Source: a virus | Taxonomy: Duplodnaviria; Caudoviricetes | Strand: one strand, 5' to 3' | DNA length: 62,651 nucleotides | IMG/VR virus record: IMGVR_UViG_3300031999_000017 | Location: 1 to 62,651 of that record | Part shown: piece by piece, positions 3,691 to 49,205 of the stretch | Position numbering within the stretch: the first letter of the stretch is position 1 | Layout: each line of letters starts with the position of its first letter | The notes under the pieces: model-generated | What the model was told of the DNA's origin: nothing | Databases searched by the model: none | What the model saw: the letters and a program-made list of their open reading frames with translations, nothing else | Translations under genes and position numbers: made by a program

Positions 3691-3691
3691 T

Positions 3692-3874: not shown

Positions 3875-3884
3875 GGGTTTTGTT

Positions 3885-4484: not shown

Positions 4485-4499
4485 TGCTGTTTTTTATTA

Positions 4500-13450: not shown

Positions 13451-13483
13451 CCACTATTTACATAAGTGATTAGTGGCTTTTTT
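13451..13483 (+). terminator. Terminator-like hairpin directly before the portal start
   Basis: CCACTA..TAGTGG stem followed by CTTTTTT. Confidence 0.45.
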
Positions 13484-13487
13484 ATAT

Positions 13488-29337: not shown

Positions 29338-29802
29338 ATGGAAAACGAAACAAAAGACATGATTGAAAAAATAGACGAGTTGGAGGTTGTTATGGCCGAA
29401 AACTTCCCTATTGTAAATTGTCCTTTGACACACAGGTTTACAGACGGATTGTATGTAAGAGAAATATTTATGCCTGCTGGAACTTTAATTACAAGTAAAA
29501 TACACAAAACACAGCATCAGTATTTTATATTAAAGGGCGCAGTTTCTGTATGGATTGATGAAGGAGAAGAAGTTTATTTGGAAGCTCCGTATATTGGAAT
29601 TACAGAGCCGGGAACAAGAAGGGTTTTATATATATGGGAAGATTGCATTTGGGCCACATCACACCCAAATCCAGACAACGAAACAATTGAAGAAATAGAA
29701 GAAAGGATAATAGAAAAGCACGATAATCCTTTGTTGCCAACTGAACTAAAAGAAAAATTAAAAGAAATAAATTCATTTATCTCTAAAACAATAACATCAT
29801 GA
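29338..29802 (+). CDS. Cupin-fold protein preceding the ejection genes
   Basis: HRFTDGLYVREIFMPAG..SKIHKTQH..G..V..APY...PGTRR..EDCIWATSH. Confidence 0.75.
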   Translation: MENETKDMIEKIDELEVVMAENFPIVNCPLTHRFTDGLYVREIFMPAGTLITSKIHKTQHQYFILKGAVSVWIDEGEEVYLEAPYIGITEPGTRRVLYIWEDCIWATSHPNPDNETIEEIEERIIEKHDNPLLPTELKEKLKEINSFISKTITS

Positions 29803-30413
29803 GTTACGTATCAATGGGGGTAGGCGCTGGCCTCTCGTTATATCAAATAATAAAGGGTGCAGGAGAAAAAAAAGCTGCATTAAAACAAAAAAATGCTTTA
29901 ATGGCAAACATGCCTAAGTATCAAGGCAGCCAAGAGCTAGATTCTTTATATCAACAAGAGAAAGCAGCCGCAGCTACACCCGCTCAAGATACCGCTCAAT
30001 TTAAAATGGGAGAGCAACAATCTCAAAGAAATTTAGCTACAGGCCTTGGCGCTGCCGGCGCTGCTGGAACATTAAGCCAAGGTATGGTATCTAGGTTAGT
30101 ACAAGGCACTAATGATGCTTCTATGAGAAACCTAGTTGCAGCCCAAAATTTAAAGGAACAGCGTATGGGCAGACTTGGCGGATTGGTGAGCCAAAAGGCA
30201 GCAGAAGGTATGCGTAAATTTCAGATAAATCAACAACAGCCATGGGAGCTTCAGTTTTCAGACGCAATGGCACAAGGCACAGCTGGATCGCAAGCTCAAC
30301 AGATGGGATTCCAAAACTTCTCAAGTCAATTGGGACAATTTGGAGCTATACAAGGATCTAAAGATTATTTAAAACAATATGCTAAGATGAAAAAGAATGG
30401 AGATTTTGGATAG
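29799..30413 (+). CDS. Ejection / internal virion protein 1
   Basis: Gly/Ala/Gln-rich with hydrophobic N-terminus; gene order. Confidence 0.65.
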   Translation: MSYVSMGVGAGLSLYQIIKGAGEKKAALKQKNALMANMPKYQGSQELDSLYQQEKAAAATPAQDTAQFKMGEQQSQRNLATGLGAAGAAGTLSQGMVSRLVQGTNDASMRNLVAAQNLKEQRMGRLGGLVSQKAAEGMRKFQINQQQPWELQFSDAMAQGTAGSQAQQMGFQNFSSQLGQFGAIQGSKDYLKQYAKMKKNGDFG

Positions 30414-30460
30414 TATTATTTTATATCCAAATGCAAACTAACAAATCAAATCAGTAAAAC

Positions 30461-31855
30461 ATGCAACAAGTACAGCCCGGATTTTATGGTGGAGACGCTT
30501 TTAGGATAGATACATCTGCTGCCACCAATTATTATTTAAAAAGACAAGCTCAACAACAGGCGAAGGAAGCTGCATTAGATAAATATTATAAAGGCTTAGT
30601 TTCTAGCGCAACACCTACGGGAATGAGAGGGCAAGAGATACCTGCATTTCAAGCCGCCTTAGCTGATTATAGAACATTTTATACCGAAAATTCTTCTAAA
30701 ATAGCCAGTGGAATGTTTCCGGAATTAGCTTTAGAAGCAGAAAGAAAAGCAGCCGTTCCAGCTATGATAGCCGCCCAAAGCAAAAACAATTTTTCAAGAG
30801 ATAAAAATATTGGAGTAATAAGAGGCTCTCAGCCAGAAACGGCTAAAAGATGGACACAAAATACTTGGAACACTTATCAGAAATCTACAAAGGCGCAATA
30901 CTTACCAGATCCATCTGGCAAAGGGGTTATAGAAAATCCAGAATATTCGGATTTTGATCCAATGGCAATAGTTCTTAATCCAAAAGAAGTTGATTTGAAT
31001 AAGCAATGGGCAGACACCGGTAAAGATATTGAAAGAGTAGAAACTACTATAGACGAGCCAGATGATTTAGATCCAAGGTTTTATACTAAAAGAACAGTAA
31101 AAACAACTCCAACGCCCGGAGGCCTAGGCTCGGTTGCAATAAAAGCAGATTCCCAATGGAATGATGAAACTGAATTTACTTTTGGCAAATACCTAGATAA
31201 AACATTTGAGCAATATTCAAAAGATAACCCGGCAAAAGTAAAAGAATTTCAAGTGTCGTACAATAAAGTTTATCCAAATAAACCCATTGAAAACGATAAA
31301 GATTTGTATATTGCCATGGCAATTAATTTAGCAGATAAAGACGAGCCAAAACCAACGCAAAGAATTAGAGATGACAAGAAATGGGCAGATTACAATAGAT
31401 CTCAAAATATATCTGCTTCTAAAGAGATTGCAAAATACAATCATGCTTTGTCTAATGCGCCTCAAATTAAAAGCGATAATAACGTAAGGACGTATTTTGA
31501 AGATATACCAGACGGAACTTATACGACAACAAGCGGAGCTAGTGTTACAAAAAAAGGAGACAGATGGGTAGACGCAAGCGGCAAGGCATTAACAACAACT
31601 GGCGAAAATACTGTAAAGATAAACAAAGCGAGCTTGCCCACCCAGTTTCAAAAAAATGCACAAGGACGGGCTCAAAGTGCAGTTGATTATATGGATTTGC
31701 ATGTTAACAATGGGGTGGCATCTGGAGGATATAATGAATTTACGAATTTAGTAACAAGAAAAGTGGCAGTAGGCGAAGCGTTAAAGGGAACAAAACAAAA
31801 AGCCTCAGTAACACAGATGGGCGCAGTAGTAGAAACTGATGATTTAGGTTTTTAA
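30461..31855 (+). CDS. Ejection / internal virion protein 2
   Basis: Position before the giant cargo gene. Confidence 0.6.
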   Translation: MQQVQPGFYGGDAFRIDTSAATNYYLKRQAQQQAKEAALDKYYKGLVSSATPTGMRGQEIPAFQAALADYRTFYTENSSKIASGMFPELALEAERKAAVPAMIAAQSKNNFSRDKNIGVIRGSQPETAKRWTQNTWNTYQKSTKAQYLPDPSGKGVIENPEYSDFDPMAIVLNPKEVDLNKQWADTGKDIERVETTIDEPDDLDPRFYTKRTVKTTPTPGGLGSVAIKADSQWNDETEFTFGKYLDKTFEQYSKDNPAKVKEFQVSYNKVYPNKPIENDKDLYIAMAINLADKDEPKPTQRIRDDKKWADYNRSQNISASKEIAKYNHALSNAPQIKSDNNVRTYFEDIPDGTYTTTSGASVTKKGDRWVDASGKALTTTGENTVKINKASLPTQFQKNAQGRAQSAVDYMDLHVNNGVASGGYNEFTNLVTRKVAVGEALKGTKQKASVTQMGAVVETDDLGF

Positions 31856-31867
31856 TTAAAATATCAA

Positions 31868-34800
31868 ATGACAAACGAACAACCAATCCAAGAAACCGAA
31901 GTAATACAAACGCCAACCCAAACCGAAGCCATTACCGAGGTATTGGTTGATCCAATATATAAACATAAAGACGGTAGAATATTTACCAAAAACCAGTTAA
32001 TGACCAAGATGGGATTAACTGAAGATAGAATTAAAGATGGCATATCTAAAGGCATGATCACCCAAGTAGGAGACACTGACGATCCTACCCAGCAATTTAA
32101 GCATAAAGACGGCAGGATTTTTTCTATGAAAGAGTTTGCGGCCCAAGGTGTTACTAAAGACAGAGTAGCAAGTGGGATAGAGAAAGGAATGATAGTGCCA
32201 ATTGAAAAAAAAAATCAAGTCGCTACTACAAAACCGCCTTTGGAAACGCAAAAGCCAGAGCCGCCAGTTTCTACAACTGGTGCTGCGGCTGGCGCATCAG
32301 TATCTACCACACCTCCAGCAGAAGAAAAACCAGTTGAAACCCCAGTAGCAACTACTCCGCCACCAACACCGGCGGTAGCGCCCCCACCAGTAGAAGAATC
32401 TAAGGTAGACTTTAGTGTTGCTCCAGCAGAAAAGCCAGCAGGCATAGCTCAATTACAAGGGCCAATAGAGCCAGTACAATCTAACATAGCAGTTAAAAAT
32501 ACAGATGGGCAAGACCAGTTTGCAATAATAACAAATCCTCAAGCGCCATTACCTTCTAAAGAAGAAGCTGAAAATTATTTTAATGCGCCTAGCAAAATTT
32601 CAGATGTCAATGTTTTTGATAATGCCGCTGAATACAACAAACTTAAAAATGCAAAGACAACCAAAATAGTATCAAGCGCAGGCGGAGGATATGAAACTGA
32701 AACACCAGATGAAGCGGCAGTAAAAAAAGCAAATCAAATACAACAAGAAGGATTAGATAAAAAAATAGACTACGACAAGGTAGTTAAAATAGGGAAACAA
32801 ATAGACGAATACTATACCGATCCAGAGGAAAATAAAAAACAAAAACAAGATTTAAGCAACCTGCTTTTATCTGGAAATAAAAACCAATTTGATTATTATG
32901 CTTCTCAAATAGCATTTAACAATGAGCTTAAAAAAGGTTTATTAGGGCACTTTAATACAGATGAAACACAAAGAATAATTGGCAACATAGTAATACCGTA
33001 TCAAAAATTATTTGAAACCACAACAAGAACAGGCCCTAATGGAGAACAAGTAATAGTTGCTGCCCAAGGAGATAAAATACCCGGTATTCAACAGGTATAT
33101 AATAATTTAAAAAATACACTTGAAATTCAAAATATTGAAAACAAAGAAGAAATATTAGATAATTTTAGAGTGATAGCTGCAAGAGATATTGCTTTTCAAG
33201 CAATAAATCATCCAGAATATGTGGAAGCCGATTCGTTAGCGAGTACAGGTCTTGATGAAAATCAGATAATAGGAATGAGGTATGTATCATCTGTAGTTCC
33301 AGAGGAAATCGGAAAATATAGAGCAGCATTAATACCAGACGAAGATATAAAAGACAATTGGCAAGCTCAAACCGCAAAGCAACAAGCATTAAAATCGTTA
33401 AGTCAAATAGGAATAAATATAGTTTCTCCGCTTTTAAACGAGACATTGCAAGACGAAATAAAAAATTACAATTTTAATGTAAACGGATTAAATAAAAATT
33501 ATTTTTACGACCAAAATCCAGAAGATTTAAAAAGCTTTGTAACTGCTTTAAATGATCAAGCTAATAGTATAGATAAGCTTTCTAAATTATCAGAAAGATT
33601 AAATACGGATTACAACAATCTTAATGATGATTCAAAATATGGTTATGCTAATTATTATGAAAGACAAGGGCTGCTTCAAGAATTAACTGGACAAAAGCAT
33701 GGATTTATAACACAGCCTTTATTAAAACTAGGCGGAGCTATATACAATACAATAGCGACAGGAATTGATATAGCTAAAAGGCCATTCTTATCTGATAGAG
33801 ATAATGAAGTAAACATGGCTACTATCATGGGTAAAAATATCGTTTTGGAAAACGAACTAAAAGTAACCCAGAAAAATCAAATGGAGAAAATGCCATACGC
33901 AATGACACCAGAATTTGAAGCTGCGTACAATGGCATAATGAACAATAAAAACTTATCCGATCAAGATAAAGAAAACAAAGTTTACGACCTTATAGTAGAC
34001 AATCCAGACGGAATACAAATAAATCCAAAAGGCAAAGAAAGCAATTTAACTCTTGGCTCTTTATGGTATGGAATGACAAACTTGGCTGCTGATTTAGCAC
34101 CATACTTAGCAATTGAAGCGCTAACCGGAGGTACAGCTACTGGAGGCGTAGCCCCATCCATGCTAAGAAAATTTAGTAGCTCATTTATTGCTGCGTTTAC
34201 TACTGGCTTTCATCAATCTTATTTAGACGCTATAAGCAGAGGCAGCCAAAATCCGTATGCAGACGCTATGAGGTCTGCTACTATTAGTTCCCTTGCAATG
34301 GCTACCGCCGGCACTCCAGATATAATGAGGAAAATTATAGGCACTAAGTCTGTTGTTGGTAAGATGATAAACAAAATGACCGACAAAGAAATTTTGCAAG
34401 TATTGAGAACAGAGCCAAAAGCTTTGAGTATGTTTAAAAAAGCATACAACTTTAGTGGCAAGGTAGCCGAAGCCACATGGGAGGGCTTTAAGGGGGGTAG
34501 TAAAATGGTTGCATTAACAACTGCCGCACAAGCTATAAACGATGAAATGTATGGAGATGTAAGAAGTTTAAAAGAATACGTAGATGGCGGAAAATTAGAA
34601 GTATTGAAATTTACTTTATTTGGAGGTATTACCGGAGGACTTACAAGAGGTTTTACCGAGAAATACGGAGATTTAACTAAGTCTGTAATGTTTGAAGCAG
34701 GAGCAAATCCAAAAGAATTTTTAGAAGTTCTTGATTTAAAAATAAAGAACAACGAAATAAGCAAAATAGATGCAGACCAAATAAGAAATAATATTGAATT

Positions 34801-37800
34801 AGCCAGCAAGCTTTACAAATCAACATATTTTGGAGATTCAAAAGGCAAGCCATTGGATGATGCTTCCAGCAGAGAACTTTTGTTTTTAAAAATGCAAGAA
34901 GCAGATATAGAAAAAATAATTACAGACAGGATTCCGGAAGAGCTTGAAAAAAAATTAACCAATCGTCTTTTAAACATTAAAGAAAAAATAAACGATTTAC
35001 GCGATGGAATAGAAGCACCAGAAAGAAAATATAGAAGCATTGATGTATTAACTCAAGGAGATATTATTGCAGGAGATATAATAAAAAACAAAGAAGGTAT
35101 TGCCGGAGAGGTGCTTCAAGTAAACGACAATAAAACTGTTGTTATAAAAGACATTCAAACAGGCGAAAAGTTTTTATGGAAACCAGAAGATATAGCAGTT
35201 AAAGCGCCAGAGCCAGTAGCTAAAACAATCCCAACATTTGGGCCTCCAACTCCTAGACCAACAACTCCTGCACCAACAACTAAACAAGAAGAGATTGTAG
35301 CCCCAGAGCCAGATAGTAATATCATGGTTGGAGATTTAATAGACAAAGCCGGAAGCTATAATGGCAAAAAGGGGGTATTTTATTTAGATGGACAAACTGT
35401 TGTATTTAAAGAAGAAGGAACAAGCAAAGAATACGACCTTGGTTACATCAATGATATAAAAGATACGCCAATAAATCAATATGGTATTCAGCATGAAGAA
35501 TCAGTTGTAAGCGCTAATGAAGATGGAACATTTACTATAAGAGGCAATACTTTAAGAAATGGATATTCTGATCCAATGCAAGCGATAAATAGAGACGCAG
35601 AAGGAAACATAATGAGCGTTACTCTTGATATGCCTAATGGCACAAAAAGAACATTTAGAGGTAATGTAGCCGAAGATTTGGCTTACCAAATTCATTTAAA
35701 AGAAATAACTAAAGACAATGCAACAGCCGCAGAATTTGAACAATTCATCAATGAGCCAGAACAACAACAGCAAGTTAACATTACAGCAGTTCCAGAAGCT
35801 ACCGCGGAAGGTACAGTTGCAGTTAATGAGACAGTTCAACGAGAGACGCTCCAGCCAACAGTCCCAGCAACCACAGAGCCAATCATCACAGGTGTAGAAG
35901 AAACCGAGTTGATAAGACAAGCAGAGCCAGATGCGCGTAGAATGGTAGATATAGAGCGTGAATTTGAAAATAGAGGCTATACCATAGATACCATTGAGGA
36001 TAATGGAATACAAATAATGGACAAAGATGGCGAGCAAGTAGAAGGGCCAGAAGATTTACCTAAAGAATTAAGAGGCCTTGCCGCAGAATACGAAGCACTT
36101 ACAGCCAAGCTTGGTGATGTTAGCGATGTAGCAAGAGAGAAAGCATTGATAGAAGCAAGAAAAGTTACAGAGGTAGAAGCCGAGGTAGTTGAGCCAGAAA
36201 CAAAGCAAATAGAAAGAGTTACAGAAACTAGACAAATAGAAGTTCCTAAAGTAAATGAAGTACACGTTACCAGAAACACAGTTAATCCTATAGGAGTTCA
36301 AGGCGGTAACATATCTTCGCTTCATGAAGATTCAAGATATATAGGAACAGATTTAAGACAAGAATATCCAGAATTATTAAAATATAATGATGGTAATCTT
36401 GATACTGCATCCGCGGCAGATTTGTGGAAATTGGCACAATTAGACCATCCAAACGAATACGGTTTTTCGGTAAGCAGAGGCGCAATGCAACATGAATTTG
36501 AAACAAGAGGCGAGCAAATATTTAAAGAACTTGGATTCCCAACTAATCCAGATGCGCTTTACAAAGCAACATATAAAGGTAAAATTGAAAAATTATCCGA
36601 CATCTTAGATCATGATAATTGGTGGTGGAGCGTTGCCGACCATGCTGATCCTGTTTATGATTACAACAAAGAATTAGCTTCAAAAGAAGCCGAAATAAAA
36701 CAAAAAGAAACAGAATTAAGCAGCATTACTAAAAAGAAAGACAAGGACAAAGCAAATAGGTTAAAATGGGATATTGAAGATTTGCAAAAAGAAGTTGAAT
36801 TATTAAAAGAAGGAATAGCAAAAGGAATTTCAAGACCTATGGGAGATATGCCAACTTCAAAACAAGTTGAACTTCCTAAGTACACAAAAACAGCAGACAA
36901 ATCAAAAAATCCTAAATCCCCCAATGAGGTAAAATGGCTGCCTCAATTTGAAAATAGATACGGTACAACAGAGGTTGAAACAAGATCATTTGACAACATA
37001 CAAGTTACAATAGAAGGATCTGAAGATAGTGGATATAAAATAAGCGCAAATGTTCTTAATGAGCATGGCAGAGTTGTAATTCGCCATAGATATGTAAGCA
37101 AAAAGAAATACAAAACAATTGAAGAGGCTAAAAGCGACACAGTTAGATATGTTAATGAAATAATAGAAAAATCTGAACGAGAAGATAGGCAAGATATAGA
37201 AATGGAACAACTGCAAGATAGGTTGCCAAAAGGATATACTTTTGAACGAGATTATGATTATGATAAAGACGAGTATGAGTACGAATTGTCTAAAGATGGC
37301 GAAATTATTTTTACAGTAGAAACTCCAAAAGAAGCAGAAAATAAAATTAATAATAAAGAGTATGATGCAAAACAATTTGGAGAAATAAAACTAGGTGAGG
37401 CAAAAGAAATAAAAGAAAAAACAACAGAAACTCAAAGAGTATTTACAGCAGCGGAATTAAAAGAAAATCCAGATGTTCTTAAAGAAAATCCAGAATGGTA
37501 CACGGTAGGCTATCCAAATAGCTTTGTGGGTATGTCAACTAATTTAGCTGGATTGCAAGGCGAAGGATTTAATGATCCAAAAGTAGGGGACGTTGTTACT
37601 TTTTCTGGAAAAGAATACGTAGTAAGAGATATAGAAACTGGGAAAAAAGATCCATATAAAACAAGCGTTTCTTTGTTAAGAGTAGATAAAGAAGGAAACA
37701 TACTACGTCAAAAAGATTTAAGTCAAAAAGAACAAAAAGAAATTGCATCTACAGAAGAAGAGCCGACAGAAATAGAAGCTGGGGATGAAATAGAATTTAA

Positions 37801-40800
37801 AACAGCGCAACAAAATACAACAAAAGGTATAAAAGTAGAGATACCGGGCCTTGAAGGACTTGATACTATATTAGTACAAGACGGAATGACTTATGAAGTA
37901 TATGAATTAACTACAGGCATGAAGTTGGCTGATACCGAAAACGCAATGTCTCCGGCTGAAGCAGTAAAGACAATAGCAAACAACATTCCTTCTGGAATGG
38001 CAGAAAAGATATTGAATAAAATATATCAAAGCGAAGAAGTAAATAGATATAAGATTGCAGGAGAAAAACCCGGAATAGCTATAATGAATGAAAGCCCTGC
38101 ATATAAAGCTTTTAGAGAACAAAAAATAGCAGAGGAAGAAAATAGACCATTTCTTCTTGATGAAAAAACAAGAAACGAGTTTTTAAATTTAGCAGAGCAA
38201 GCAAAAAGTGAAGGTCTTGATATTGCAGAAAAATCTTTAATTACTTTAGCTAATACAAGACAAGGCGCAATAGCAGAAACTCCATATACAATTGAAAGAG
38301 CAAAAGAATTATTAGAGAATTATAGAAAAAAGAAAGATTTAGAAGAAAGGAGATTACAAAATATTCCATATCCAGAAAAAGATATAGAAAAAAGAGAAAT
38401 AACCGAAGATGCACTAATTAGAGCAATGCAGCAAGGTTATAAAAGAGATAGATGGAATAAGCTGCCGGAAGAAATTAAAAAAGCAGCATTAGAGGCATGG
38501 AGAAAAGAGGCTGCTATTTATAATAAATACGGATATTATCCAAGCACATTTACTGGAGGCGAAACTTTTTTTGGAACTACGCTTACTTTAGGCAGGTATA
38601 TTGGAGCAACATTATCAAAAGACGCAAGCAAAAGAGAAGGAAAAATAAAAGAGGACTTGCGAATAATGCAAGAAAACTTCAAGCGCATAGACGAAATCTA
38701 TAAGCAAGAAGGATTTGATGTACTTAAAGCTCCAGAAGGACAAACCGCTAAGCCATTAACTATAACAGAGCCGGAGATACCAGTTGAAGCACAAAATGCA
38801 TTTAATAGAATTAAAAATAGACAAAAGAAGGCAGCAGCGCCGATAGAAACAGAAGAAGCAATAAAAGTAAATGATGAAGAAAAAATATTAACTCTTAAAG
38901 AAAAGAATAAAATAACTACAACAATAAATGAGCTAGAATTTGCAGACGATAACGGCAATACTAGGCATAGTGAATTAGTTAATACTATAAAATTATTAAA
39001 GAATCAAAATGAAATAAATAAATTACAAAAGCGTGAAAATTTCACTACAACAGAATTAATTACTCATTTATATTCAGATTTAATAGCCATACCTAAAGAA
39101 AACAGAACTAAAGAACATAATAACTTTATTAAAAAGGTTAATGAAATAGTAAGTTCTGAACAAGCAAAAACAGAAGTAGTAAATTTTGCTCCTTTTGATG
39201 CTGCCGGTGATTTAGCAGAAAACATAAAAAAATTATCTAGCACAGAACTTCCCCAACAAAAAACAATAGAACAACTAAGAGCAGATGAACAAGCAGAGTA
39301 CGATGCAATGCCCGATCCAAATGATAAAGTAGAGCGAAAAAGAATTTACGACAAGTACGATGAACTTATTACTCCTTTATTAAAAGAAACGCCAATAACA
39401 GAAACCACTTCCCCCGCTGTGGAACAGTCGCAAGCAGATTATTTTAAAGATCTAATTAAAGAAGAGAAGCAACAAAATAAAGAATTAAGAAAAAAATTTA
39501 ATGAACCCGACACTCTAGAGGTTGGAGATGTTGTTGTTGATAATGCAAATGGTCGGGGTGGCTACGAAAATAGAGTGATTAGAAATGTAATTAAAAATGA
39601 AAATGGAAGCTATAGAATAGTTTGGCAAAAAACCGATAATTACAAAAAAGGGGATGCGGGTATTTATGAAACTGTAATGACTAAAATGACTATTGGTAGT
39701 GAGCGCACTGGGTTTAATACTTTATGGTCAATGTCTGATGCCAAAGCGCATAATGAATCATTACCAGAAATACCAAAAGAAAAAAGAATTGGCTATATAA
39801 AAGAACCATATTTAGCCAAAATAAAAGCAGAAAGCAAACAAGCAGTTTTATCATCAGACGTAAGAACAACACCAGCAAAAAGTCTAAGCTTAGATGAACA
39901 AAGATTTCAAAATAGAAACGATGTAACTGGCAAGACATTGTTAGTTTCTGATATGATTTCTAACAGAGAAAAAAACCCGGAATCTTTTGATAGAGTAGAA
40001 ACCATTGCTAATAACTGGAAGAGCGCAGAGCAAGATCCAATACATGTATGGACTGATCCTAAAGATGGCAAGACCTATGTGTTAAGTGGACACCATAGGT
40101 ATGCAGCAGCTTTAAAAGCCGGCATCAAAGACGTAAAGACAATAGATAGAACAAAAGATTTTACAGAAGCCCAAGCGATAAAGTTTGCTAGAGAAGAGGC
40201 CAATACAAACAGAGCAATGGAAACTCCATTGGAAAGAGCAAAGGCATTAAGAATTAAAAGAGAAAGAGGTGATAGCAAAGAAGAAATTAATAAGTTTTTA
40301 TCTGCTGAAGGCAAAAACGCCAGTTACATAAACAATCTTTCTTCATTAAGCCCTAACGGCAAAACTATGAAAATGGTTGAGCAGTTCGGCAGTTCACCAG
40401 ATAAACAAACTCAAAAAGAATCAGAACAAAGAGCAGACTGGATAGGGGAAGCAAGAAGAACAATAGCTGGACTTACAGATGCGCATGAAAACGAAATGTT
40501 TGACTTTTTATTTGACAAAAACAAATCAAAAAGAGTAACAACAAAAGCCGATTTTTTACAAAAGGTAAGAGCATCAGTAAAACCATTAACACCCGAAGAA
40601 CCATTAAACATATCTCGCTTTGAATATAAAACACAAGGCGAAAGTGTTTATGAAGAAGAAGTAAATAGCATAAAGGATCAATTAGCCGAACGTCAAAACA
40701 AAATAAACGAAATAAACGGAAGGTTTAATAATCCAAATGCAAAAGATTATATATCTACTGAAAGCGCAAATTATGCAGAAGCAAGAAAAGTAGCAGATGC

Positions 40801-43800
40801 AAAAATCGCAGGCATAGAAGCTGAAAGAAAGGCGCTTCAAAAACAACTTGAAACGGTTTATTCTAACAAGAGCAAATATACTGGCGGCCCATCAAGCGGC
40901 ACATTGTTCTCATACAGAGAAACTCGTCCAGAGGATTTTGAAGATTACGTAGAAGGTGTTACCGACATGATAAATGAATCTCCAGAAAAAACTTTACAAC
41001 AAGTTCAAGCGGAGGTAGCAAATTATTTTGATGATCATACACCGGCATTTAAAAAGTTAATAGAGCAAGCTTACAATGAAGCTAAAAATAATGTTACTGG
41101 GCGAATAGTGAAAACTGAAGTTTTACAAAAGTTAAACAAGGGATTCTTAAAGATAGGCTCAACGATATTTGATAACGAGCAACAATTAATAGCTAAAGCA
41201 AGGCAACTTTCTGGATCAAGATTTAGCGCATTAGACCAAACCGGAAGAACGCCATTAGAATTTTCTAAAGATTTAGAAAAACAATATGGAGTAAAAGTTG
41301 ATTTTCTTGGAAGCTTGGAAGGCGGCGATTTGACTTTGTCAAGAATAGAAGTCCCAAAAGAACTTAGAGATAGCGGAATAGGCACTAAGGTTATGGAGGA
41401 TATTATTAACTATGCTGACAATAATGGCAAGAGAATAGTATTAACTCCATCAAAAGATTTTGGTGCTACATCAGTAGGTAGATTAAAAGATTTTTATAGC
41501 AGATTCGGATTTGTAGAAAATAAAGGAAAGAGCAAAGATTTTTCTACCAAAGAAGCTATGTATAGAAATCCGCAAACCCCCAAACAAACATTTGCAGAAA
41601 AATCACAGACAGCAGGATTTGAAACTAGAGATGGCAAGCCAATAGGATTTAATTACGATACAGACCAAGTAGCGAGGGAGCGCTTTGATTTTTCTAAATT
41701 GAAAAAAATAGGAGAAGGTAGCGATAGAATTGTATTTGATTTGGGTAACGGTAAAGTATTAAAGGTTGCTAAAACAGCAAGAGGACTTGAGCAAAACATT
41801 TATGAAGGAGATGGATATTTAGGTTTTATTCCAGATGTATATGAAAGAGGTTTGAATTATGTTGTAACAGATAACATACCAAGAATAAAAGGTACTGATT
41901 TAGTTCCAATACACGATATAGAAACTGGACAAGAAATAGGTACAGTTCCTGCCGCCGAAATGTTTAAAGATTTAAAGAAGTTTCATCAAGGAGATTTTGA
42001 TAGGCACAATTCAGAACTACAAACTATTCTTGAAAAATATGGCTTTGGAGATGTTAATGGATATGAATTACTTTATGGCGATTTCAATGCTGCAAGAAAC
42101 TGGGGATATAAAGATGGCAAACCATATCTTATAGATGCCGGAACTTTAGGCGGAGTTGAAATGCTTAAAAAATACCGCGGAGTGAAAAATTTATCTGATC
42201 CGGATTTCAGAAAAATATATTACGAAAGCAGACAATTAAAAAAACAGTATGTAGATGCTGATAAGTACACTAAGTTTCACTATGATGAAAATGGAGAAAT
42301 ACTTGGATTTACTCATGGCGGACACATCTATTTGAATGGACAAAAGATAACAGCTAAAACTACAATGGAAGAAGCTGGGCATATTTGGATTAACCACGCA
42401 AGAGAAACTAACTCTTCTTTATATAACGCCGGATTAAAAAAAGTATTAAACAGCCAGTATCTTAAAGATGTAAACGCAAGCGAATTTTATAGAAAAGAAG
42501 CCTTAAAGCAGGGTAAAGAAGGAAGCAAAGCGTATAACGATTACATGCAGGAAGAGGCTCTTGCTAAAGCTATATCTGACGAAGGTGCTAAGTTTGTTAC
42601 AGATGCACAAAGAATAAGCTTTAAAGACTGGGTAAGCAAAATGTGGGATAATGTAATGAAGGCATTTGGTATTAGAGATTTAACTCCAGACCAAGTGGCA
42701 AAACTTTCTTTAAAAGATTTTGCAAAAATGGCGGCAGCAGATGTATTTGCAGAAGGCAAGCCGGAAGCAAAAGCAGAGCCTGTTGTTCCAGAAGTAAAGC
42801 CAGCTCCTAAAGGACAAGAAAATGTAACCGTAACAACAACAGTCCAAAATCCAGAAGGCGAAAGAGTAACGAGAACAGAAACCATACCAACCAAAAATAC
42901 ATATTTATACGAAGGAACAGAAGAAAGACAAAGAGGCCTTTACACTCATTTGATGGAAGCTGATAGCGTTAGTCAAGAAACTAAAAATGCGCTAAAGAAA
43001 AATGGTATTACATATCAAGCAGCCAATAATGCACAAGCGGAATTGATGGCTGAAGATATATTAAAGACTTACAACACAAGAGATGCTTTACAAATAGCTA
43101 GAGGTTCTGATGTTCATGCTTCAGTAAGGTCTGCAATATTTGCTAAACTTATTGATGCCGCATACGTGAGAGAAATGAGAGCTAAGACACCGGAAGAAAA
43201 AATGAGGGCTGCGCAACAATGGAAAGATTTAGTTACAGAGTATGCAAACCAATTAACTGCTGGTGGTCAATTTACTGCTTATGCTGCTCATTTTTACAGA
43301 ACAAGTCCAATGGGATTTATAATGAAAGAAAATGCAGATAGAGAAGCAAGATTTAACGAGTGGTCTAAAGGAAAAGAAAAGACACTGGAAGAGTTGTGGA
43401 GCGAAATAAATGCTACTGCGGAAGGAAGGTCTTTGGTTAATTTAGAAGTAAAGAAAGCAAGAGAAGCAGAACGAGAAGCAGAACGAAAAGTTAGGGATAA
43501 AAAAATTGATGATTTCTTTGACAAGCTAAAAATAAATCCTAAAAATACTTATGGATTTATTATACCACTAGGCGTATTAAACCCGGTCATAGATACTATG
43601 AAGTTGGCTGTAAAAGCAGGCGACAGAGTTGCAGATGTAGTACAGCGAGCAATAGAACAAATATCAGATAAAGTAGGTAATAGCTGGGATAAAGAAGCAT
43701 TTAGAAAAGACTACGAAGAAATGTTAACTGGTGTAGTTGGTAAGGTTACAAAAGAATCTGATGAAGCAACGCAGTTAAGAAAAAGATTGGAAGGATTAGA

Positions 43801-46800
43801 AAAACAAATTGCAGACTTAAAAGAAAAGATAGGCAAGGGCGGAGAAGCCGGAAAGAAAAAAGAAATTAAATTTAGCGGCAACCCAGAAGTACAAAAGCTA
43901 ATAGAAGAAAGAGATCAGCTAAAAAAAGAAAATGAAGATTTATTAAAAAATGCTAAGGCAGGCAAGTATTCTGATGAAGCAAAAATAAAAGCCGCCAAAG
44001 AAGCTGTATTAAAATCCATTGAAGAAACAAAAAGAAAGATTATAGATAACGATTTGTCTATAAAGAAAAAAGAAGGCCCTACTGATGCAGAGCTTACCGC
44101 TCACAGAGAAGAACAAAAAAGATTGCGCAAAGAGTTAGAGGACATGAGAAAAGAAGCGCAAGAAGGCAAGTACGATCCAGTAGAAATGGCTAAGGCAGAA
44201 GCTAAAAGAAAACAGGCAAGGATAGACGAACTTAACAGAAGAATAAATGAAAATGATTTTAGTGCAGAGAAAGAAAAAATGCAGAAACAAAAAACTGCAT
44301 TAGATGATGAACTGGCGGAAACTAAAAGAAGATACGATGAAGCTAAAAAGCAATCGCCAGAATATAAAGAAAAAAAATCAAAACAATTTTTAGATAGATT
44401 AAGAAAAAGGCTTGAAGGATTAAGCGAGCGTCAAAGAAACGAAATAGTACAACGCAGCCTAAAGCAAATAACAGAAGCAGGCGGATTGAATTACGAAGAA
44501 TTTAGAAAGATAGTTGCCGAATCAATGGGCTATAAAGATTTAACTCCTGCTGAAGTTGCTGAAGTAGAAGCGCTTACTAAAACAATAAATTCGGTTGATG
44601 ATGCAGAAGATGCTTTAGTTGCTAATCCAACAGAAGCAAATTTAAAAGCACTTGATAAAGCAAGACAAGATGCTATGACAGCCGGATTGAAATTGTATAA
44701 CAAAACGCACAGGCAAGCAGACATTCCAAGAACATTTGGAAGCCTTATTACTGGATCTCTTTTAGGTACAGTTACACTTGGTAAAAACATAATACAAAAC
44801 GTAGTTATGCAGGCTACCATGAGAGTGCCAAAAGCATTAATTATACAACCATCTGAATCAGCATTAGTTTGGCTTGGAAATAGATTTTCTAATTCTAAAG
44901 CTTTTAATCCTTCTGCAAATATATTTACTGCTCAAAAAGGATATTTTAAAGGAGCGGGCAGAGGTATAAAAAGAGGCTGGTTTAATTTTTATAAAGGAAC
45001 ACAAGAAAGAGATTATTTTGGCAAAATTTCTTATCAATCTACATTAGCTCCACGCGTAGCAGTTAAAGATTTAAAATTGCATTTTAGTGGACAGAAACCA
45101 TTGACAAAAACAGAACTTACAGAAAGAATGATAAGAGCTACGCTTGGATGGCAGCCGGACTTTATTTTGAGAGCAATGGGTTTTGGCGATAGACCGTTTA
45201 GGTGGGCTGCCGAAGGCGCTGCTGCAATTCAAATTGCAAAACTTGAATTAAAACTTGCAGATGAAAATGAAATAAATGCTTTCATGTACGCTCCTAAAAA
45301 ATTTGCATATAAAACTTTAGTAGACCAAGGTATACCAAAAGATGAAGCTTTATTAAGGGCAGCTGAAATAGAAGATAGAATAATTAATGCAGGAAGCAAG
45401 GCGGTATTGGAAGAAGAAAATGTATTAAGCAGAATTTCTAAATATTTAGACCAAGGTCTTTCTACTAAAAAAGATGATTCTAAATTAAAACAAATTGCTT
45501 TTGGAGCAGCTTCAATACTCAAAACAGCTACTTTCCCATTTGTCAAAATACCTGCTAACGTATATTGGCAAATGTTTAAGGTAGCAAATCCAGAGGTTGC
45601 TTTATTGCAAGGTTTATATCATGGAGGAAAAGCTTTTATTGATGCTAAAGGTGGAGATAAAGCAGAAGCAAAAAAACAATATGAATATCTAAAGGATAAT
45701 TTAGCTACAGCAGTTTTAGGGTATGGCGTAATGATTGCGGTATCTAGCCTAGTTGCAAATGGGTATGTACGACCAGAAAATGATGATGAAACCAAAGCAA
45801 GAGAAAGAGAAGGAGAAAAGCCATACGAAAAAGGCAATCAGCTTAATTGGGGAAGAATGATGGGTGGTGAAGATTACTGGATAGACCTAAGTTGGTTTGG
45901 CCCAATTGGAACTACAATGGGAGTTCAAGCTAAAATTCAAGAACAAAACAGACGTAAACAATTAAAAGGAGAAACAGTAGACACAAGCTGGGCCGGAGAT
46001 TTTGAAGATAGATTTACCGTTGCTGAAATGGAATCATTAAATCAACTTGTCTACGATCAAGCCGGAAGAACAATAGGCGCTATAAAAGGTGGCGAAAACG
46101 GTTTAAAAGTTTGGGCAATAAATAGCATGAATACCGGAATGAACATAATTACTGGCGCTACTTATACTCAAATGAGTAAAGCAATGCTACCGGTAGTCCC
46201 AAGATTAAAAGCAGAGGGAGTTATGGAAGAATTTAAAAATAACCAGCAGCAAAGAAATGTTCTTTACAGAAGGTATAGCGGCATGCCGCCAACAAGAGTG
46301 TCTATATGGGGCGATCCAATTAAACAAGATACAAGTTTTTGGGGTGTAGTTAGTAACATGCTTGGCTTCCAAGAAACAGACGCACACCAGTTTGGTGCTA
46401 TTCTTTACTATGATGCACAAAGAACTGGAGACACAAGATTTTTCCCTACAGCAGTAACGGACAAGGTTACAGTAGACGGAGTAGAGATTAAATTAACTCA
46501 AGACCAAAAGGACGAGCTTGCTACATACATAGGACAGGCAAGAAAAATGTTAGTAGGATCATTTGTATATGATTGCGCTTTGCCTTACGAAGTACCAGTA
46601 AAAGGGCAGCCAGCTAAGAAATTGAAATATAATGACAAGGACATGACAGATGCCGACAAAATACATGCGCTTGAAAAGATTTATAATTATGGAAAAGAAA
46701 TAGGGTTTGCTCAATTTCAAAAAGCGCATAAAGAATTTGCTCCGGCAGAACTTACTCCTTCACAGCTTGGTGCTCAAATTAAAAGAGAAGTTTATGACGA

Positions 46801-46948
46801 GAAGTTTAAAATGGGCCTTGAAAAGGTAGTAAGAGCGAAAGGAAAAGAAATTCCATCGCCAACTAAGGAGGAAGAATTGCAGAAAGAAATAGACGAGCAG
46901 AACGAACAAATAAGAAAAATGAGGGATGAACAAGAAAATCCAGAATAA
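31868..46948 (+). CDS. Giant (5026 aa) polyvalent internal virion protein with ParB/Srx-like, GNAT, kinase and zincin-like domains
   Basis: VLSGHHRY; VPKELRDSGIG/FYSRFGF; GEGSDR/VLKVAK/GDF..RNWG/IDAG; EEAGH..EEALA. Confidence 0.85.
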   Translation: MTNEQPIQETEVIQTPTQTEAITEVLVDPIYKHKDGRIFTKNQLMTKMGLTEDRIKDGISKGMITQVGDTDDPTQQFKHKDGRIFSMKEFAAQGVTKDRVASGIEKGMIVPIEKKNQVATTKPPLETQKPEPPVSTTGAAAGASVSTTPPAEEKPVETPVATTPPPTPAVAPPPVEESKVDFSVAPAEKPAGIAQLQGPIEPVQSNIAVKNTDGQDQFAIITNPQAPLPSKEEAENYFNAPSKISDVNVFDNAAEYNKLKNAKTTKIVSSAGGGYETETPDEAAVKKANQIQQEGLDKKIDYDKVVKIGKQIDEYYTDPEENKKQKQDLSNLLLSGNKNQFDYYASQIAFNNELKKGLLGHFNTDETQRIIGNIVIPYQKLFETTTRTGPNGEQVIVAAQGDKIPGIQQVYNNLKNTLEIQNIENKEEILDNFRVIAARDIAFQAINHPEYVEADSLASTGLDENQIIGMRYVSSVVPEEIGKYRAALIPDEDIKDNWQAQTAKQQALKSLSQIGINIVSPLLNETLQDEIKNYNFNVNGLNKNYFYDQNPEDLKSFVTALNDQANSIDKLSKLSERLNTDYNNLNDDSKYGYANYYERQGLLQELTGQKHGFITQPLLKLGGAIYNTIATGIDIAKRPFLSDRDNEVNMATIMGKNIVLENELKVTQKNQMEKMPYAMTPEFEAAYNGIMNNKNLSDQDKENKVYDLIVDNPDGIQINPKGKESNLTLGSLWYGMTNLAADLAPYLAIEALTGGTATGGVAPSMLRKFSSSFIAAFTTGFHQSYLDAISRGSQNPYADAMRSATISSLAMATAGTPDIMRKIIGTKSVVGKMINKMTDKEILQVLRTEPKALSMFKKAYNFSGKVAEATWEGFKGGSKMVALTTAAQAINDEMYGDVRSLKEYVDGGKLEVLKFTLFGGITGGLTRGFTEKYGDLTKSVMFEAGANPKEFLEVLDLKIKNNEISKIDADQIRNNIELASKLYKSTYFGDSKGKPLDDASSRELLFLKMQEADIEKIITDRIPEELEKKLTNRLLNIKEKINDLRDGIEAPERKYRSIDVLTQGDIIAGDIIKNKEGIAGEVLQVNDNKTVVIKDIQTGEKFLWKPEDIAVKAPEPVAKTIPTFGPPTPRPTTPAPTTKQEEIVAPEPDSNIMVGDLIDKAGSYNGKKGVFYLDGQTVVFKEEGTSKEYDLGYINDIKDTPINQYGIQHEESVVSANEDGTFTIRGNTLRNGYSDPMQAINRDAEGNIMSVTLDMPNGTKRTFRGNVAEDLAYQIHLKEITKDNATAAEFEQFINEPEQQQQVNITAVPEATAEGTVAVNETVQRETLQPTVPATTEPIITGVEETELIRQAEPDARRMVDIEREFENRGYTIDTIEDNGIQIMDKDGEQVEGPEDLPKELRGLAAEYEALTAKLGDVSDVAREKALIEARKVTEVEAEVVEPETKQIERVTETRQIEVPKVNEVHVTRNTVNPIGVQGGNISSLHEDSRYIGTDLRQEYPELLKYNDGNLDTASAADLWKLAQLDHPNEYGFSVSRGAMQHEFETRGEQIFKELGFPTNPDALYKATYKGKIEKLSDILDHDNWWWSVADHADPVYDYNKELASKEAEIKQKETELSSITKKKDKDKANRLKWDIEDLQKEVELLKEGIAKGISRPMGDMPTSKQVELPKYTKTADKSKNPKSPNEVKWLPQFENRYGTTEVETRSFDNIQVTIEGSEDSGYKISANVLNEHGRVVIRHRYVSKKKYKTIEEAKSDTVRYVNEIIEKSEREDRQDIEMEQLQDRLPKGYTFERDYDYDKDEYEYELSKDGEIIFTVETPKEAENKINNKEYDAKQFGEIKLGEAKEIKEKTTETQRVFTAAELKENPDVLKENPEWYTVGYPNSFVGMSTNLAGLQGEGFNDPKVGDVVTFSGKEYVVRDIETGKKDPYKTSVSLLRVDKEGNILRQKDLSQKEQKEIASTEEEPTEIEAGDEIEFKTAQQNTTKGIKVEIPGLEGLDTILVQDGMTYEVYELTTGMKLADTENAMSPAEAVKTIANNIPSGMAEKILNKIYQSEEVNRYKIAGEKPGIAIMNESPAYKAFREQKIAEEENRPFLLDEKTRNEFLNLAEQAKSEGLDIAEKSLITLANTRQGAIAETPYTIERAKELLENYRKKKDLEERRLQNIPYPEKDIEKREITEDALIRAMQQGYKRDRWNKLPEEIKKAALEAWRKEAAIYNKYGYYPSTFTGGETFFGTTLTLGRYIGATLSKDASKREGKIKEDLRIMQENFKRIDEIYKQEGFDVLKAPEGQTAKPLTITEPEIPVEAQNAFNRIKNRQKKAAAPIETEEAIKVNDEEKILTLKEKNKITTTINELEFADDNGNTRHSELVNTIKLLKNQNEINKLQKRENFTTTELITHLYSDLIAIPKENRTKEHNNFIKKVNEIVSSEQAKTEVVNFAPFDAAGDLAENIKKLSSTELPQQKTIEQLRADEQAEYDAMPDPNDKVERKRIYDKYDELITPLLKETPITETTSPAVEQSQADYFKDLIKEEKQQNKELRKKFNEPDTLEVGDVVVDNANGRGGYENRVIRNVIKNENGSYRIVWQKTDNYKKGDAGIYETVMTKMTIGSERTGFNTLWSMSDAKAHNESLPEIPKEKRIGYIKEPYLAKIKAESKQAVLSSDVRTTPAKSLSLDEQRFQNRNDVTGKTLLVSDMISNREKNPESFDRVETIANNWKSAEQDPIHVWTDPKDGKTYVLSGHHRYAAALKAGIKDVKTIDRTKDFTEAQAIKFAREEANTNRAMETPLERAKALRIKRERGDSKEEINKFLSAEGKNASYINNLSSLSPNGKTMKMVEQFGSSPDKQTQKESEQRADWIGEARRTIAGLTDAHENEMFDFLFDKNKSKRVTTKADFLQKVRASVKPLTPEEPLNISRFEYKTQGESVYEEEVNSIKDQLAERQNKINEINGRFNNPNAKDYISTESANYAEARKVADAKIAGIEAERKALQKQLETVYSNKSKYTGGPSSGTLFSYRETRPEDFEDYVEGVTDMINESPEKTLQQVQAEVANYFDDHTPAFKKLIEQAYNEAKNNVTGRIVKTEVLQKLNKGFLKIGSTIFDNEQQLIAKARQLSGSRFSALDQTGRTPLEFSKDLEKQYGVKVDFLGSLEGGDLTLSRIEVPKELRDSGIGTKVMEDIINYADNNGKRIVLTPSKDFGATSVGRLKDFYSRFGFVENKGKSKDFSTKEAMYRNPQTPKQTFAEKSQTAGFETRDGKPIGFNYDTDQVARERFDFSKLKKIGEGSDRIVFDLGNGKVLKVAKTARGLEQNIYEGDGYLGFIPDVYERGLNYVVTDNIPRIKGTDLVPIHDIETGQEIGTVPAAEMFKDLKKFHQGDFDRHNSELQTILEKYGFGDVNGYELLYGDFNAARNWGYKDGKPYLIDAGTLGGVEMLKKYRGVKNLSDPDFRKIYYESRQLKKQYVDADKYTKFHYDENGEILGFTHGGHIYLNGQKITAKTTMEEAGHIWINHARETNSSLYNAGLKKVLNSQYLKDVNASEFYRKEALKQGKEGSKAYNDYMQEEALAKAISDEGAKFVTDAQRISFKDWVSKMWDNVMKAFGIRDLTPDQVAKLSLKDFAKMAAADVFAEGKPEAKAEPVVPEVKPAPKGQENVTVTTTVQNPEGERVTRTETIPTKNTYLYEGTEERQRGLYTHLMEADSVSQETKNALKKNGITYQAANNAQAELMAEDILKTYNTRDALQIARGSDVHASVRSAIFAKLIDAAYVREMRAKTPEEKMRAAQQWKDLVTEYANQLTAGGQFTAYAAHFYRTSPMGFIMKENADREARFNEWSKGKEKTLEELWSEINATAEGRSLVNLEVKKAREAEREAERKVRDKKIDDFFDKLKINPKNTYGFIIPLGVLNPVIDTMKLAVKAGDRVADVVQRAIEQISDKVGNSWDKEAFRKDYEEMLTGVVGKVTKESDEATQLRKRLEGLEKQIADLKEKIGKGGEAGKKKEIKFSGNPEVQKLIEERDQLKKENEDLLKNAKAGKYSDEAKIKAAKEAVLKSIEETKRKIIDNDLSIKKKEGPTDAELTAHREEQKRLRKELEDMRKEAQEGKYDPVEMAKAEAKRKQARIDELNRRINENDFSAEKEKMQKQKTALDDELAETKRRYDEAKKQSPEYKEKKSKQFLDRLRKRLEGLSERQRNEIVQRSLKQITEAGGLNYEEFRKIVAESMGYKDLTPAEVAEVEALTKTINSVDDAEDALVANPTEANLKALDKARQDAMTAGLKLYNKTHRQADIPRTFGSLITGSLLGTVTLGKNIIQNVVMQATMRVPKALIIQPSESALVWLGNRFSNSKAFNPSANIFTAQKGYFKGAGRGIKRGWFNFYKGTQERDYFGKISYQSTLAPRVAVKDLKLHFSGQKPLTKTELTERMIRATLGWQPDFILRAMGFGDRPFRWAAEGAAAIQIAKLELKLADENEINAFMYAPKKFAYKTLVDQGIPKDEALLRAAEIEDRIINAGSKAVLEEENVLSRISKYLDQGLSTKKDDSKLKQIAFGAASILKTATFPFVKIPANVYWQMFKVANPEVALLQGLYHGGKAFIDAKGGDKAEAKKQYEYLKDNLATAVLGYGVMIAVSSLVANGYVRPENDDETKAREREGEKPYEKGNQLNWGRMMGGEDYWIDLSWFGPIGTTMGVQAKIQEQNRRKQLKGETVDTSWAGDFEDRFTVAEMESLNQLVYDQAGRTIGAIKGGENGLKVWAINSMNTGMNIITGATYTQMSKAMLPVVPRLKAEGVMEEFKNNQQQRNVLYRRYSGMPPTRVSIWGDPIKQDTSFWGVVSNMLGFQETDAHQFGAILYYDAQRTGDTRFFPTAVTDKVTVDGVEIKLTQDQKDELATYIGQARKMLVGSFVYDCALPYEVPVKGQPAKKLKYNDKDMTDADKIHALEKIYNYGKEIGFAQFQKAHKEFAPAELTPSQLGAQIKREVYDEKFKMGLEKVVRAKGKEIPSPTKEEELQKEIDEQNEQIRKMRDEQENPE

Positions 46949-49200: not shown

Positions 49201-49205
49201 TTTAT

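Follow-up and report, generated by a model that had tools for sequence, protein, structure and literature searches.

Polyvalent proteins were described as a class by Iyer et al. in 2017, together with a proposal that they are delivered with the DNA; the same work counts ParB, GNAT, protein-kinase and zincin (MPTase) among the typical modules and reports a modified kinase in Bacteroidetes (pro)phages (PMC5512222). A second point of comparison is the cargo block of crAss-like phages, whose cargo proteins in crAss001 are described as stored in and ejected from the virion (PMC10172136). For both crAss001 and phi14:2, GenBank notes of tandem mass spectrometry (MS/MS) evidence, along with that source, place cargo-block proteins in virions. 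Here we analysed a 15-kb gene of the IMG/VR record IMGVR_UViG_3300031999_000017, a sequence of 62,651 bp that is the whole virus record, is classed as linear and ~93% complete, and is called the window below. The gene takes up 24% of the record and encodes a protein that we call P0001. An earlier interpretation made from the letters alone (the sequence-only reading) had taken it for a single open reading frame (ORF) at 31868-46948, and it does run uninterrupted for 5026 amino acids (aa).

We put at about 65% the probability that a crAss-related podovirus here encodes an internal virion (ejection or cargo) protein enlarged into a polyvalent one. At least two unrelated effector or catalytic domains lie in one polypeptide whose content is mosaic among relatives, and P0001 is probably a virion-borne member of the polyvalent class. 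As in the described members, many unrelated catalytic modules share one chain and the gene lies beside virion genes; relatives of P0001 carry ART-PolyVal, LPD38, LPD23 and Kinase-PolyVal, and the C-terminal fold matches predicted polyvalent structures. In contrast to those members, P0001 is matched by no Pfam polyvalent model, its kinase-like module is not PF18762, its zincin-like motif reads EExxH, and the chain is anchored on a C-terminal core without a Pfam model. The giant resembles the crAss virion RNA polymerase (vRNAP) and cargo block (phi14:2 gp65-gp67; crAss001 gp45-gp50; the fusions cr55_1, cr50_1, Carjivirus gp44 and Fpv2 gp33) in standing downstream of a muzzle gene. It differs in lacking the conserved GSDFDVDK-type motif, in being negative by vRNAP profile and hhalign, and in having a C-terminal core without similarity to gp45, gp46, gp47, gp49, gp50, gp65 or gp67; the genome of 62.65 kb also compares with ~100 kb for crAss-like phages.

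C-terminal core and N-terminal payload

A word-index search with P0001 retrieved 13 other large proteins. P0002-P0005 (4465-4742 aa) come from other assemblies and are collinear with P0001, the identity being 58-80% over long stretches at both ends and 35-59% between them; because of these counterparts the giant ORF is not an assembly artefact. An alignment of eight sequences has 367 invariant columns, most of them after aa 3600. The C-terminal core consists of a helical block, a lysine/glutamate-rich coiled region (aa ~3985-4180) and an all-alpha domain of 847 aa that defines the family. HMMER with aa 4180-5026 over 1.84 billion cluster representatives gave 314 matches at E ≤ 1e-3, 133 of them at E ≤ 1e-30. 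Position within the protein was counted in the best 150 of the 314, of which 119 cover the 847-aa domain: it ends at most 45 residues from the C-terminus in 119/119 (median 5), and the length ahead of it ranges from 1 to 3837 residues (median 1283). In IMG/VR the family occurs at 11 loci, in open frames of 1260-3674 aa, and the forms of 1260-1277 aa are equivalents of aa ~3677-5026 alone. A BLAST map of P0001 against P0002-P0014 showed the payload to be a mosaic among relatives. Because the 847-aa domain is always C-terminal, core-only forms exist and the N-terminal extensions vary, the giant is, as judged from these comparisons, an ancestral C-terminal core of ~1300-1350 aa carrying ~3650 aa of accreted mosaic N-terminal payload.

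The 847-aa domain has no Pfam match in 31/31 members. By tblastn against 50,697 deposited phage genomes the core found none even at E ≤ 10 apart from a single chance-level match (E 5), and in 185,579 species genomes it had one match, on a 9.3-kb contig of a Bacteroidetes metagenome-assembled genome (50% identity). It likewise matched none of crAss001 gp45-gp50, phi14:2 gp65-gp71, elemoF gp18, Gundel_1 gp074, phi38:1 gp101, the ZX1 PLxRFG protein and Parlo gp81.

An AlphaFold2 model of the 847-aa domain (31 sequences) reached a predicted local distance difference test score (pLDDT) of 78.9 and a predicted template-modelling score of 0.70, and is nearly all helical with a few short hairpins. Against the PDB it gave 0 matches at E ≤ 1e-3, the best being MFS transporters at E 0.09 and a template-modelling (TM) score ≤ 0.15. 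Since no solved structure matches, the domain is unlike the solved vRNAP. The predicted structures of BFVD included 51 that matched at E ≤ 1e-3. Heading the list, at E 2e-16 to 5e-13 and a TM of 0.51-0.58 by query, are models of the second chunk of long viral proteins, which bear the names Phage MuF C-terminal, PolyVal ADP-ribosyltransferase, ART-PolyVal-like, EF-hand or Large polyvalent protein-associated domain 3 (LPD3). Matches named internal virion protein came from the Synechococcus phages S-CBP3, S-CBP2 and S-RIP1 and a Pelagibacter phage (E 3e-10 to 3e-9); for S-CBP3 the similarity extends over 885 columns (E 3.2e-10, TM 0.49/0.48). The core thus resembles, by Foldseek and at the level of predicted models, proteins named as internal virion proteins of T7-like marine podoviruses; in contrast, no solved structure of such a protein matches and no sequence similarity appears in the deposited phage genomes. 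The strongest hydrophobic window of P0001 also falls in the 847-aa domain (aa 4612-4630, mean hydropathy 1.97).

The N-terminal part is conserved in patches. P0001 shares aa 1-180 with P0005 and P0007 (49-58% identity) and aa 1-116 with IMG/VR locus L016, and Pro, Thr and Ala make up 45% of aa 101-200. The Gly/Ala hydrophobic segment that had been read at ~34040-34660 is present as a Gly/Ala-rich, low-charge stretch (aa 725-931, nt 34040-34660) inside the N-terminal conserved block, but its Kyte-Doolittle mean over 19 residues stays below 1.2; windows of at least 1.2 occur in P0001 only at aa 3897, 4543 and 4612. GD-containing units, described from the sequence as beta-barrel-like, exist as five or six motifs but without detectable mutual similarity, and self-BLAST (E ≤ 0.01) found no internal repeats in P0001. 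In the ESM Atlas, aa 430-1120 gave leads only, viral clusters carrying LPD14/LPD22 (score 0.93), and aa 1100-2650 gave no usable match. The N-terminal half had no match by tblastn in 50,697 phage records, the N-terminal 2700 aa matched nothing in the PDB by sequence, and the word-index search among shorter proteins returned 1 match for aa 1120-2650. Within the widely shared module at aa 1333-1450, six relatives (P0002-P0006, P0008) read IDTDYDNEI, a DxDxD string, where P0001 reads IDTIEDN; the loop may be an EF-hand-like metal loop lost in P0001. Several BFVD fold neighbours of the C-terminal domain bear EF-hand protein names. A 196-aa antisense ORF with a TTG start (34219-34809, minus strand) lies wholly within the giant gene and is most likely spurious.

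Enzyme-like modules

Four enzyme-like modules occupy 39.85-42.79 kb (Table 1), in agreement with the sequence-only reading, which had located ParB, GNAT, kinase and zincin motifs within 39.9-42.7 kb. The first three motifs were upheld, ParB by sequence, GNAT weakly by sequence (Pfam matches below cut-off) and the kinase by a confident AlphaFold model with kinase-like PDB neighbours and conserved residues; the zincin motif was upheld in part.

The ParB/Srx-like module (profile core aa 2699-2824) matched gp43 of Salisaeta phage SSIP-1 by tblastn (31% identity, E 2e-23) in addition to phrog_1033. In the PDB it found Spo0J 1vz0 (E 1.2e-3), with Spo0J/ParB entries ranging from 1.2e-3 to 0.019. ParB was the only match in an NCBIfam scan of four P0001 tiles, and the relatives P0009, P0010 and P0211 carry PF02195.

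The GNAT-like module, whose BLAST-shared span is aa 3087-3243, was hit by PF14542, PF13673, PF13508 and PF00583 over the same 70 residues (E 3.5e-5 to 8.8e-3). Giant proteins of unrelated phages contain copies with 44-58% identity to it, and the proteins with the nearest copies are annotated 'PLxRFG protein' or 'DarB-like antirestriction'. At the level of the whole protein, PF13673 or PF13508 also matches the relatives P0012 and P0199. Serratia phage Parlo gp81 (3764 aa) and the PLxRFG protein of Klebsiella phage ZX1 (3867 aa) share this module with P0001 at 44-46% identity, and like P0001 they are giants that end the structural module of a ~60-kb podophage genome. Nothing else is shared: P0001 has no PLxRFG motif and no C-terminal core match to them, and the Parlo and ZX1 proteins, unlike P0001, carry a canonical HExxH.

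For the protein-kinase-like module, aa 3226-3660 were modelled by AlphaFold2 with a 26-sequence alignment. The mean pLDDT was 76.8, with values mostly of 86-98 at model residues 41-210 and of 75-87 by residue 240. Foldseek against the PDB returned 5 matches at E ≤ 1e-3 (best 3e-4), and all of the matches listed are kinase-like folds, among them APH(2''), RIO1/RIO2, PRPK, Lyn and MPS1. Residues expected of a kinase are kept in the aligned homologues: K3299 in 23/24, D3405 in 22/22, N3411 in 19/22 and D3423 in 21/22. We infer that K3299 corresponds to the conserved Lys, D3405/N3411 to the catalytic Asp/Asn and D3423 to the metal-binding Asp of the kinase fold. The module has 111 shorter homologues, many of them in proteins with ART-PolyVal. 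A profile of aa 3226-3660 found nothing significant in the PDB by sequence, the best kinase being SteC at E 0.5. Membership of the Pfam Kinase-PolyVal family (PF18762) was considered and ruled out: that model has no match in P0001, and the module shows no similarity to residues 400-1000 of P0223, within which the best PF18762 stretch of that protein lies.

The zincin-like module reads EEAGH (aa 3501-3505) where its more distant homologues have HExxH, and no HExxH occurs anywhere in P0001. The homologous motif is HEFSH in P0011, HEFGH in Gundel_1 gp074 (27.5% identity) and HEAGH in P0168, P0170, P0174 and P0208; EEAGH recurs in nine close relatives and four further homologues. In the model of aa 3226-3660 the motif lies within helix 275-289. 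Pfam had no match to the module, HExxH-bearing homologues included. Because the homologues read HExxH where P0001 reads EEAGH, the zincin fold family assigned from the sequence is probably right for aa 3470-3640, but the HExxH motif itself is absent and, as far as the residues tell, the canonical zinc site is not intact.

Table 1. Coordinates of the giant gene, its modules and the virion genes around it.
Feature	Position	Strand	Basis
TerL	11267-13342		phrog_6681, E 7e-67
Portal	13473-15920		phrog_6547
Capsid-type virion protein	18556-19989		within co-oriented structural block
crAss-type tail ring protein 2, 211 aa	23435..24070	+	Pfam PF25702 CrAss_Ring_2, E 1.1e-7, 32.1 bits (cut-off 27), full length
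Muzzle-like virion protein, 1317 aa	25129..29082	+	phrog_14478, E 4.2e-66
Three ORFs (154, 204, 464 aa) between muzzle-like gene and giant	29338..31855	+	ORF calls
Whole giant ORF, 5026 aa + stop, protein P0001	31868..46948	+	uninterrupted, ATG start
N-terminal ~116-aa domain with duplicated KHKDGRIF motif, then Pro/Thr/Ala-rich linker	31868..32215	+	sequence
N-terminal conserved block, aa ~450-1100	33215..35167	+	P0005-P0008, P0011 at 23-37% identity; also L022
Widely shared ~115-aa module, aa 1333-1450	35864..36217	+	common to nine relatives
DYDYD, only DxDxD of P0001 (DYDYDKD, aa 1795-1801)	37250..37264	+	acidic stretch
ParB/Srx-like module, aa 2662-2948	39851..40711	+	phrog_1033, E 2.4e-12
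GNAT-like module, aa 3150-3218	41315..41521	+	four Pfam GNAT families
Protein-kinase-like module, aa 3262-3461	41651..42250	+	phrog_4301 (unknown function), E 1.8e-6; fold model
Zincin-like module, aa 3470-3640	42275..42787	+	EEAGH replacing HExxH; conserved EEALAKA helix after
Conserved C-terminal core, aa 3677-5026	42896..46945	+	48-80% identity in all close relatives
C-terminal 847-aa family-defining domain, aa 4180-5026	44405..46945	+	HMMER family

Cargo slot and search for an RNA polymerase

The giant had been placed after the muzzle gene and two ejection-type genes. A muzzle-like ORF does precede it; its Pfam crAss_MUZ_C match (E 1.9e-4, 22.2 bits) lies under the 27-bit cut-off. The genes in between number three, not two, and none has a significant family match (Pfam for all three; PHROGs for the 204- and 464-aa ORFs only). 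This three-ORF stretch is kept upstream of the family protein in IMG/VR relatives; a muzzle-like gene lies upstream in 7/11 family loci and a 180-aa gene downstream in 6/11. The position may fairly be called the 'cargo slot of a crAss-type tail' because it matches the order in crAss001, where the muzzle gp44 is followed by the cargo proteins gp45 and gp46 and then by gp47 (2341 aa). Cultured flavobacterial podophages of Elemovirus, Pachyviridae and Pervagoviridae keep the same arrangement of muzzle-like gene, two or three small genes and giant, the giants being elemoF gp18 (3694 aa), Gundel_1 gp074 (2482 aa) and phi38:1 gp101 (1691 aa). Downstream, a 1009-aa ORF with a TTG start (49146-52175, plus strand) found no family in Pfam or PHROGs; some of its stretches are conserved downstream of the family protein in L016, L021 and L023, and it is a candidate receptor-binding or tail protein.

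The nearest relatives of TerL and of the muzzle-like protein are the same four groups, Elemovirus, Callevirus/Pervagoviridae, Gundelvirus/Pachyviridae and Maribacter phage Panino, at 25-29% identity (87 records each), and the muzzle-like homologues in Elemovirus, Callevirus and Gundelvirus are annotated as virion structural proteins. Structural clustering of Pachyviridae and Pervagoviridae with Crassvirales has been reported (PMC9855967). With regard to Crassvirales, the Ring_2 match is above its cut-off and the muzzle C-domain below, no RNA polymerase (RNAP) was found and the genome is 62.65 kb rather than ~100 kb. Judged by its nearest relatives, the phage is crAss-related in its tail module yet probably outside Crassvirales. 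The capsid region had no blastn match in 50,697 deposited phage records.

Whether the giant contains a virion polymerase was addressed with a vRNAP core profile made from seven proteins (phi14:2 gp66, cr55_1, cr50_1, crAss001 gp50, Carjivirus gp44, Fpv2 gp33 and Dulem virus 41), all of which carry the motif G(S/L)D(F/Y)D(V/I)D. The 259 targets comprised P0001-P0014, the reference proteins of the cultured relatives and of phi14:2 (including the three giants) and all open six-frame stretches of at least 60 aa in the window. With all filters off, the hidden Markov model (HMM) found gp66 only, the next best having E 0.41, and a leave-one-out control recovered 7/7 vRNAPs at E ≤ 3.6e-58. When 16 overlapping 600-aa tiles of the eight-sequence family alignment were compared with the vRNAP core by hhalign, the probability was ≤ 0.4%. 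Pfam and PHROG RNAP families had no match in P0001, and Pfam RNAP families were absent from the record scans; the look-up of PF00940 (RNA_pol), which had no match in the record, is uninformative because control genomes gave none either. The modelled parts (aa 3226-3660 and 4180-5026) are without a double-psi beta-barrel. By tblastn, phi14:2 gp66 reached 147 phage records, crAss-like or Fpv-like by the organism tallies and matches listed, among which there were none from Elemovirus, Pervagoviridae or Pachyviridae.

The claim that P0001 has no DxDxD motif was literally wrong. Its single instance lies in a stretch that close relatives lack (aa ~1682-1831 in P0002, aa ~1656-1854 in P0003), and no DxDxD is shared family-wide in the eight-sequence alignment. 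The broader claim that no virion RNAP is recognisable was borne out by the HMM, by hhalign and by the 7/7 control. As far as profiles can tell, P0001 is without a crAss-type virion RNAP, and none was found elsewhere in the ~93% complete record. Because no RNAP gene was found in the record, the phage presumably relies on the host polymerase; the early host sigma-A promoters of the sequence-only reading follow from that absence only. The Bacteroidota −7 promoter motif and two-box consensus were not enriched (−7 box, 87 against 104 expected; two-box, 3 against 6.6 expected), a count that is neither for nor against host promoters.

Several observations were made in passing. The vRNAP-containing genes of the crAss-like or Fpv-like GenBank loci L008, L009, L011 and L012 encode 4551, 4774, 4070 and 4401 aa and are annotated variously 'hypothetical protein', 'DNA helicase' and 'virion structural protein'; since all four carry the GSDFDVDK-type motif, two or three of these labels appear mistaken. 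In the window, a 443-aa ORF (60352-61683, minus strand; P0015) is rich in Cys and His towards its N-terminus and contains a DFDFDK string and the pattern GIEIE...GFELKTP...GGHIGFS, without a Pfam or PHROG match. It adjoins an ORF (59499-60290, minus strand) that matches class-II glutamine amidotransferase (GATase_4, E 9.6e-6), and the two may be a phage amidoligase plus GAT-II pair. P0015 was considered as a small RNAP and rejected, given the lack of a vRNAP HMM match and the amidoligase-like pattern beside the GATase_4 gene. In the replication module (window 3885-6554, minus strand), a 684-aa PrimPol-helicase fusion (Prim-Pol E 4e-9, phrog_19930 E 7e-77) adjoins a NinG-like protein (E 1.5e-13), and no DNA polymerase was noticed among the ORFs scanned, a scan that covered part of those in the record. 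A 267-aa ORF (56040-56843, minus strand) matches the ferredoxin-like domain of Api92-like proteins (DUF1281_C, E 1.5e-7) and phrog_12644 (E 1e-25).

Proposed ejection and its alternatives

What was observed concerns the ORF, its conservation, the identities of its modules by sequence or fold, its synteny and the missing crAss-type RNAP signature. If the giant is an internal virion protein, its C-terminal core would be packed in the capsid and would leave via the tail ahead of or with the DNA, by analogy with the ejection proteins of T7 and P22, which are known to pass through the tail, and with the cargo proteins of crAss001, for which such a passage has been proposed (PMC10172136). The N-terminal payload would enter the cell along with the core, and the kinase-like, GNAT-like and ParB-like modules could act before phage gene expression, early phage transcription presumably being carried out by the host polymerase. 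The targets would most plausibly be host defence, or host or phage macromolecules. Counter-defence is at least as likely as host-protein modification or host take-over, because the kinase-like module is closest in fold to aminoglycoside phosphotransferases and RIO kinases and the nearest GNAT relatives sit in DarB-like antirestriction proteins. The sequence-only reading, which had the protein phosphorylate and acetylate host proteins after co-injection, is partly supported: a polyvalent, probably virion-borne protein without an RNAP stands, but its function had been over-specified.

Several results weigh against an ejected protein with working enzyme modules. The TM-scores of the kinase-fold matches are low (0.16-0.35), the TIGR00180 match of the ParB-like module (E 4.3e-7) scores 29.9 bits against a cut-off of 58.45, all GNAT matches are under their gathering cut-offs (best 24.3 against 30 bits), and the zincin-like module is without its first zinc-binding His. 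The 847-aa model shows no resemblance to solved T7 ejection proteins or to phi14:2 gp66; with no solved-structure match, it is predicted structures and database names that connect it to internal virion proteins. The giants in the cultured slot have no detectable homology to P0001 except in the zincin-like module of Gundel_1 gp074, and their designation as 'structural protein' is an annotation label only. A search with phi38:1 gp101 found 9 records, and phi18:1, from which these labels derive, was not one of them.

These weaknesses could mean that the protein is packaged and ejected but that its enzyme-like modules are decayed or structural, leaving a bulky ejection or channel protein, or a 'filler' under capsid pressure, with no catalysis. 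The lost His in P0001, nine close relatives and four further homologues, the sub-cut-off GNAT and ParB matches and the loss in P0001 of a DxDxD loop kept by six relatives all fit this explanation. We nevertheless consider it unlikely, since the kinase residues are conserved (D3405, D3423 and K3299 in nearly every homologue), the GNAT-like module remains 44-58% identical to copies in distant phages, and EEAGH is itself kept among homologues of 60-78% identity, which suggests selection. The protein might also be made late and left unpackaged, acting in the producing cell in counter-defence, superinfection exclusion or ParB-like DNA handling. Modules of the ParB-like, GNAT and kinase kinds might work just as well inside an infected cell. 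We give this little credence, because the gene shares the orientation of the structural module and sits tightly within it, after the muzzle-like gene and before other conserved late genes, its C-terminal fold resembles proteins named internal virion proteins, and a protein of 5026 aa whose synthesis was confined to the late phase would come too late for an early role in that infection.

A very diverged two-barrel or other RNAP hidden in the N-terminal ~3200 residues, as a counterpart of the crAss vRNAP fusions, appears highly improbable. It would suit a giant that occupies the cargo position of crAss-type tail genes, given that crAss-like phages encode RNAP-containing giants of 4070-4774 aa and that an RNAP fused to a tape measure has been reported for P23-45 (10.1101/2022.12.01.518664); moreover, DYDYDK at aa 1795 resembles the vRNAP GSDFDVDK / GLDYDIDK motif, that of Fpv2 included, and the fold models cover only aa 3226-3660 and 4180-5026. 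However, P0002 and P0003 are missing the DYDYD stretch and the family shares no DxDxD, the controlled profile searches and the Pfam and PHROG look-ups were negative, and aa 1120-2650 are almost without relatives. Nor can the N-terminal part be essential to the lineage, since members of 1260-1277 aa do without it entirely. An external role, as a giant fibre, whisker or decoration in which Pro/Thr/Ala linkers join small beta domains, would account for the five or six GD units, the linkers and the position beside tail genes; we regard it as very improbable for a protein with cytoplasm-type enzyme modules, an all-alpha core without fibre-like repeats, no internal repeats and no tail-fibre family matches. 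An internal virion protein grown into a polyvalent protein remains the reading that we prefer.

Since polyvalent proteins with these modules have been described and giants of 3.7-4.8 thousand residues are known in other podophages, P0001 opens no new class. What is new here, by sequence comparison, is a widespread C-terminal carrier domain without annotation; this core of the putative effector carrier has 314 metagenomic clusters and no cultured representative. More tentatively, a crAss-related lineage may have filled the RNAP cargo slot with an expandable effector carrier, so that the host would be reprogrammed or disarmed by injected kinase, acetyltransferase and ParB-type activities and not by transcription; we hold this to be possible though doubtful. 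Committing a quarter of the genome to one gene makes sense only if its product has a deciding effect as infection begins. A crAss-type tail and cargo slot need not imply a virion RNAP, and telling a conserved carrier apart from its swappable payload offers a handle for mining injected effectors in Bacteroidota phages.

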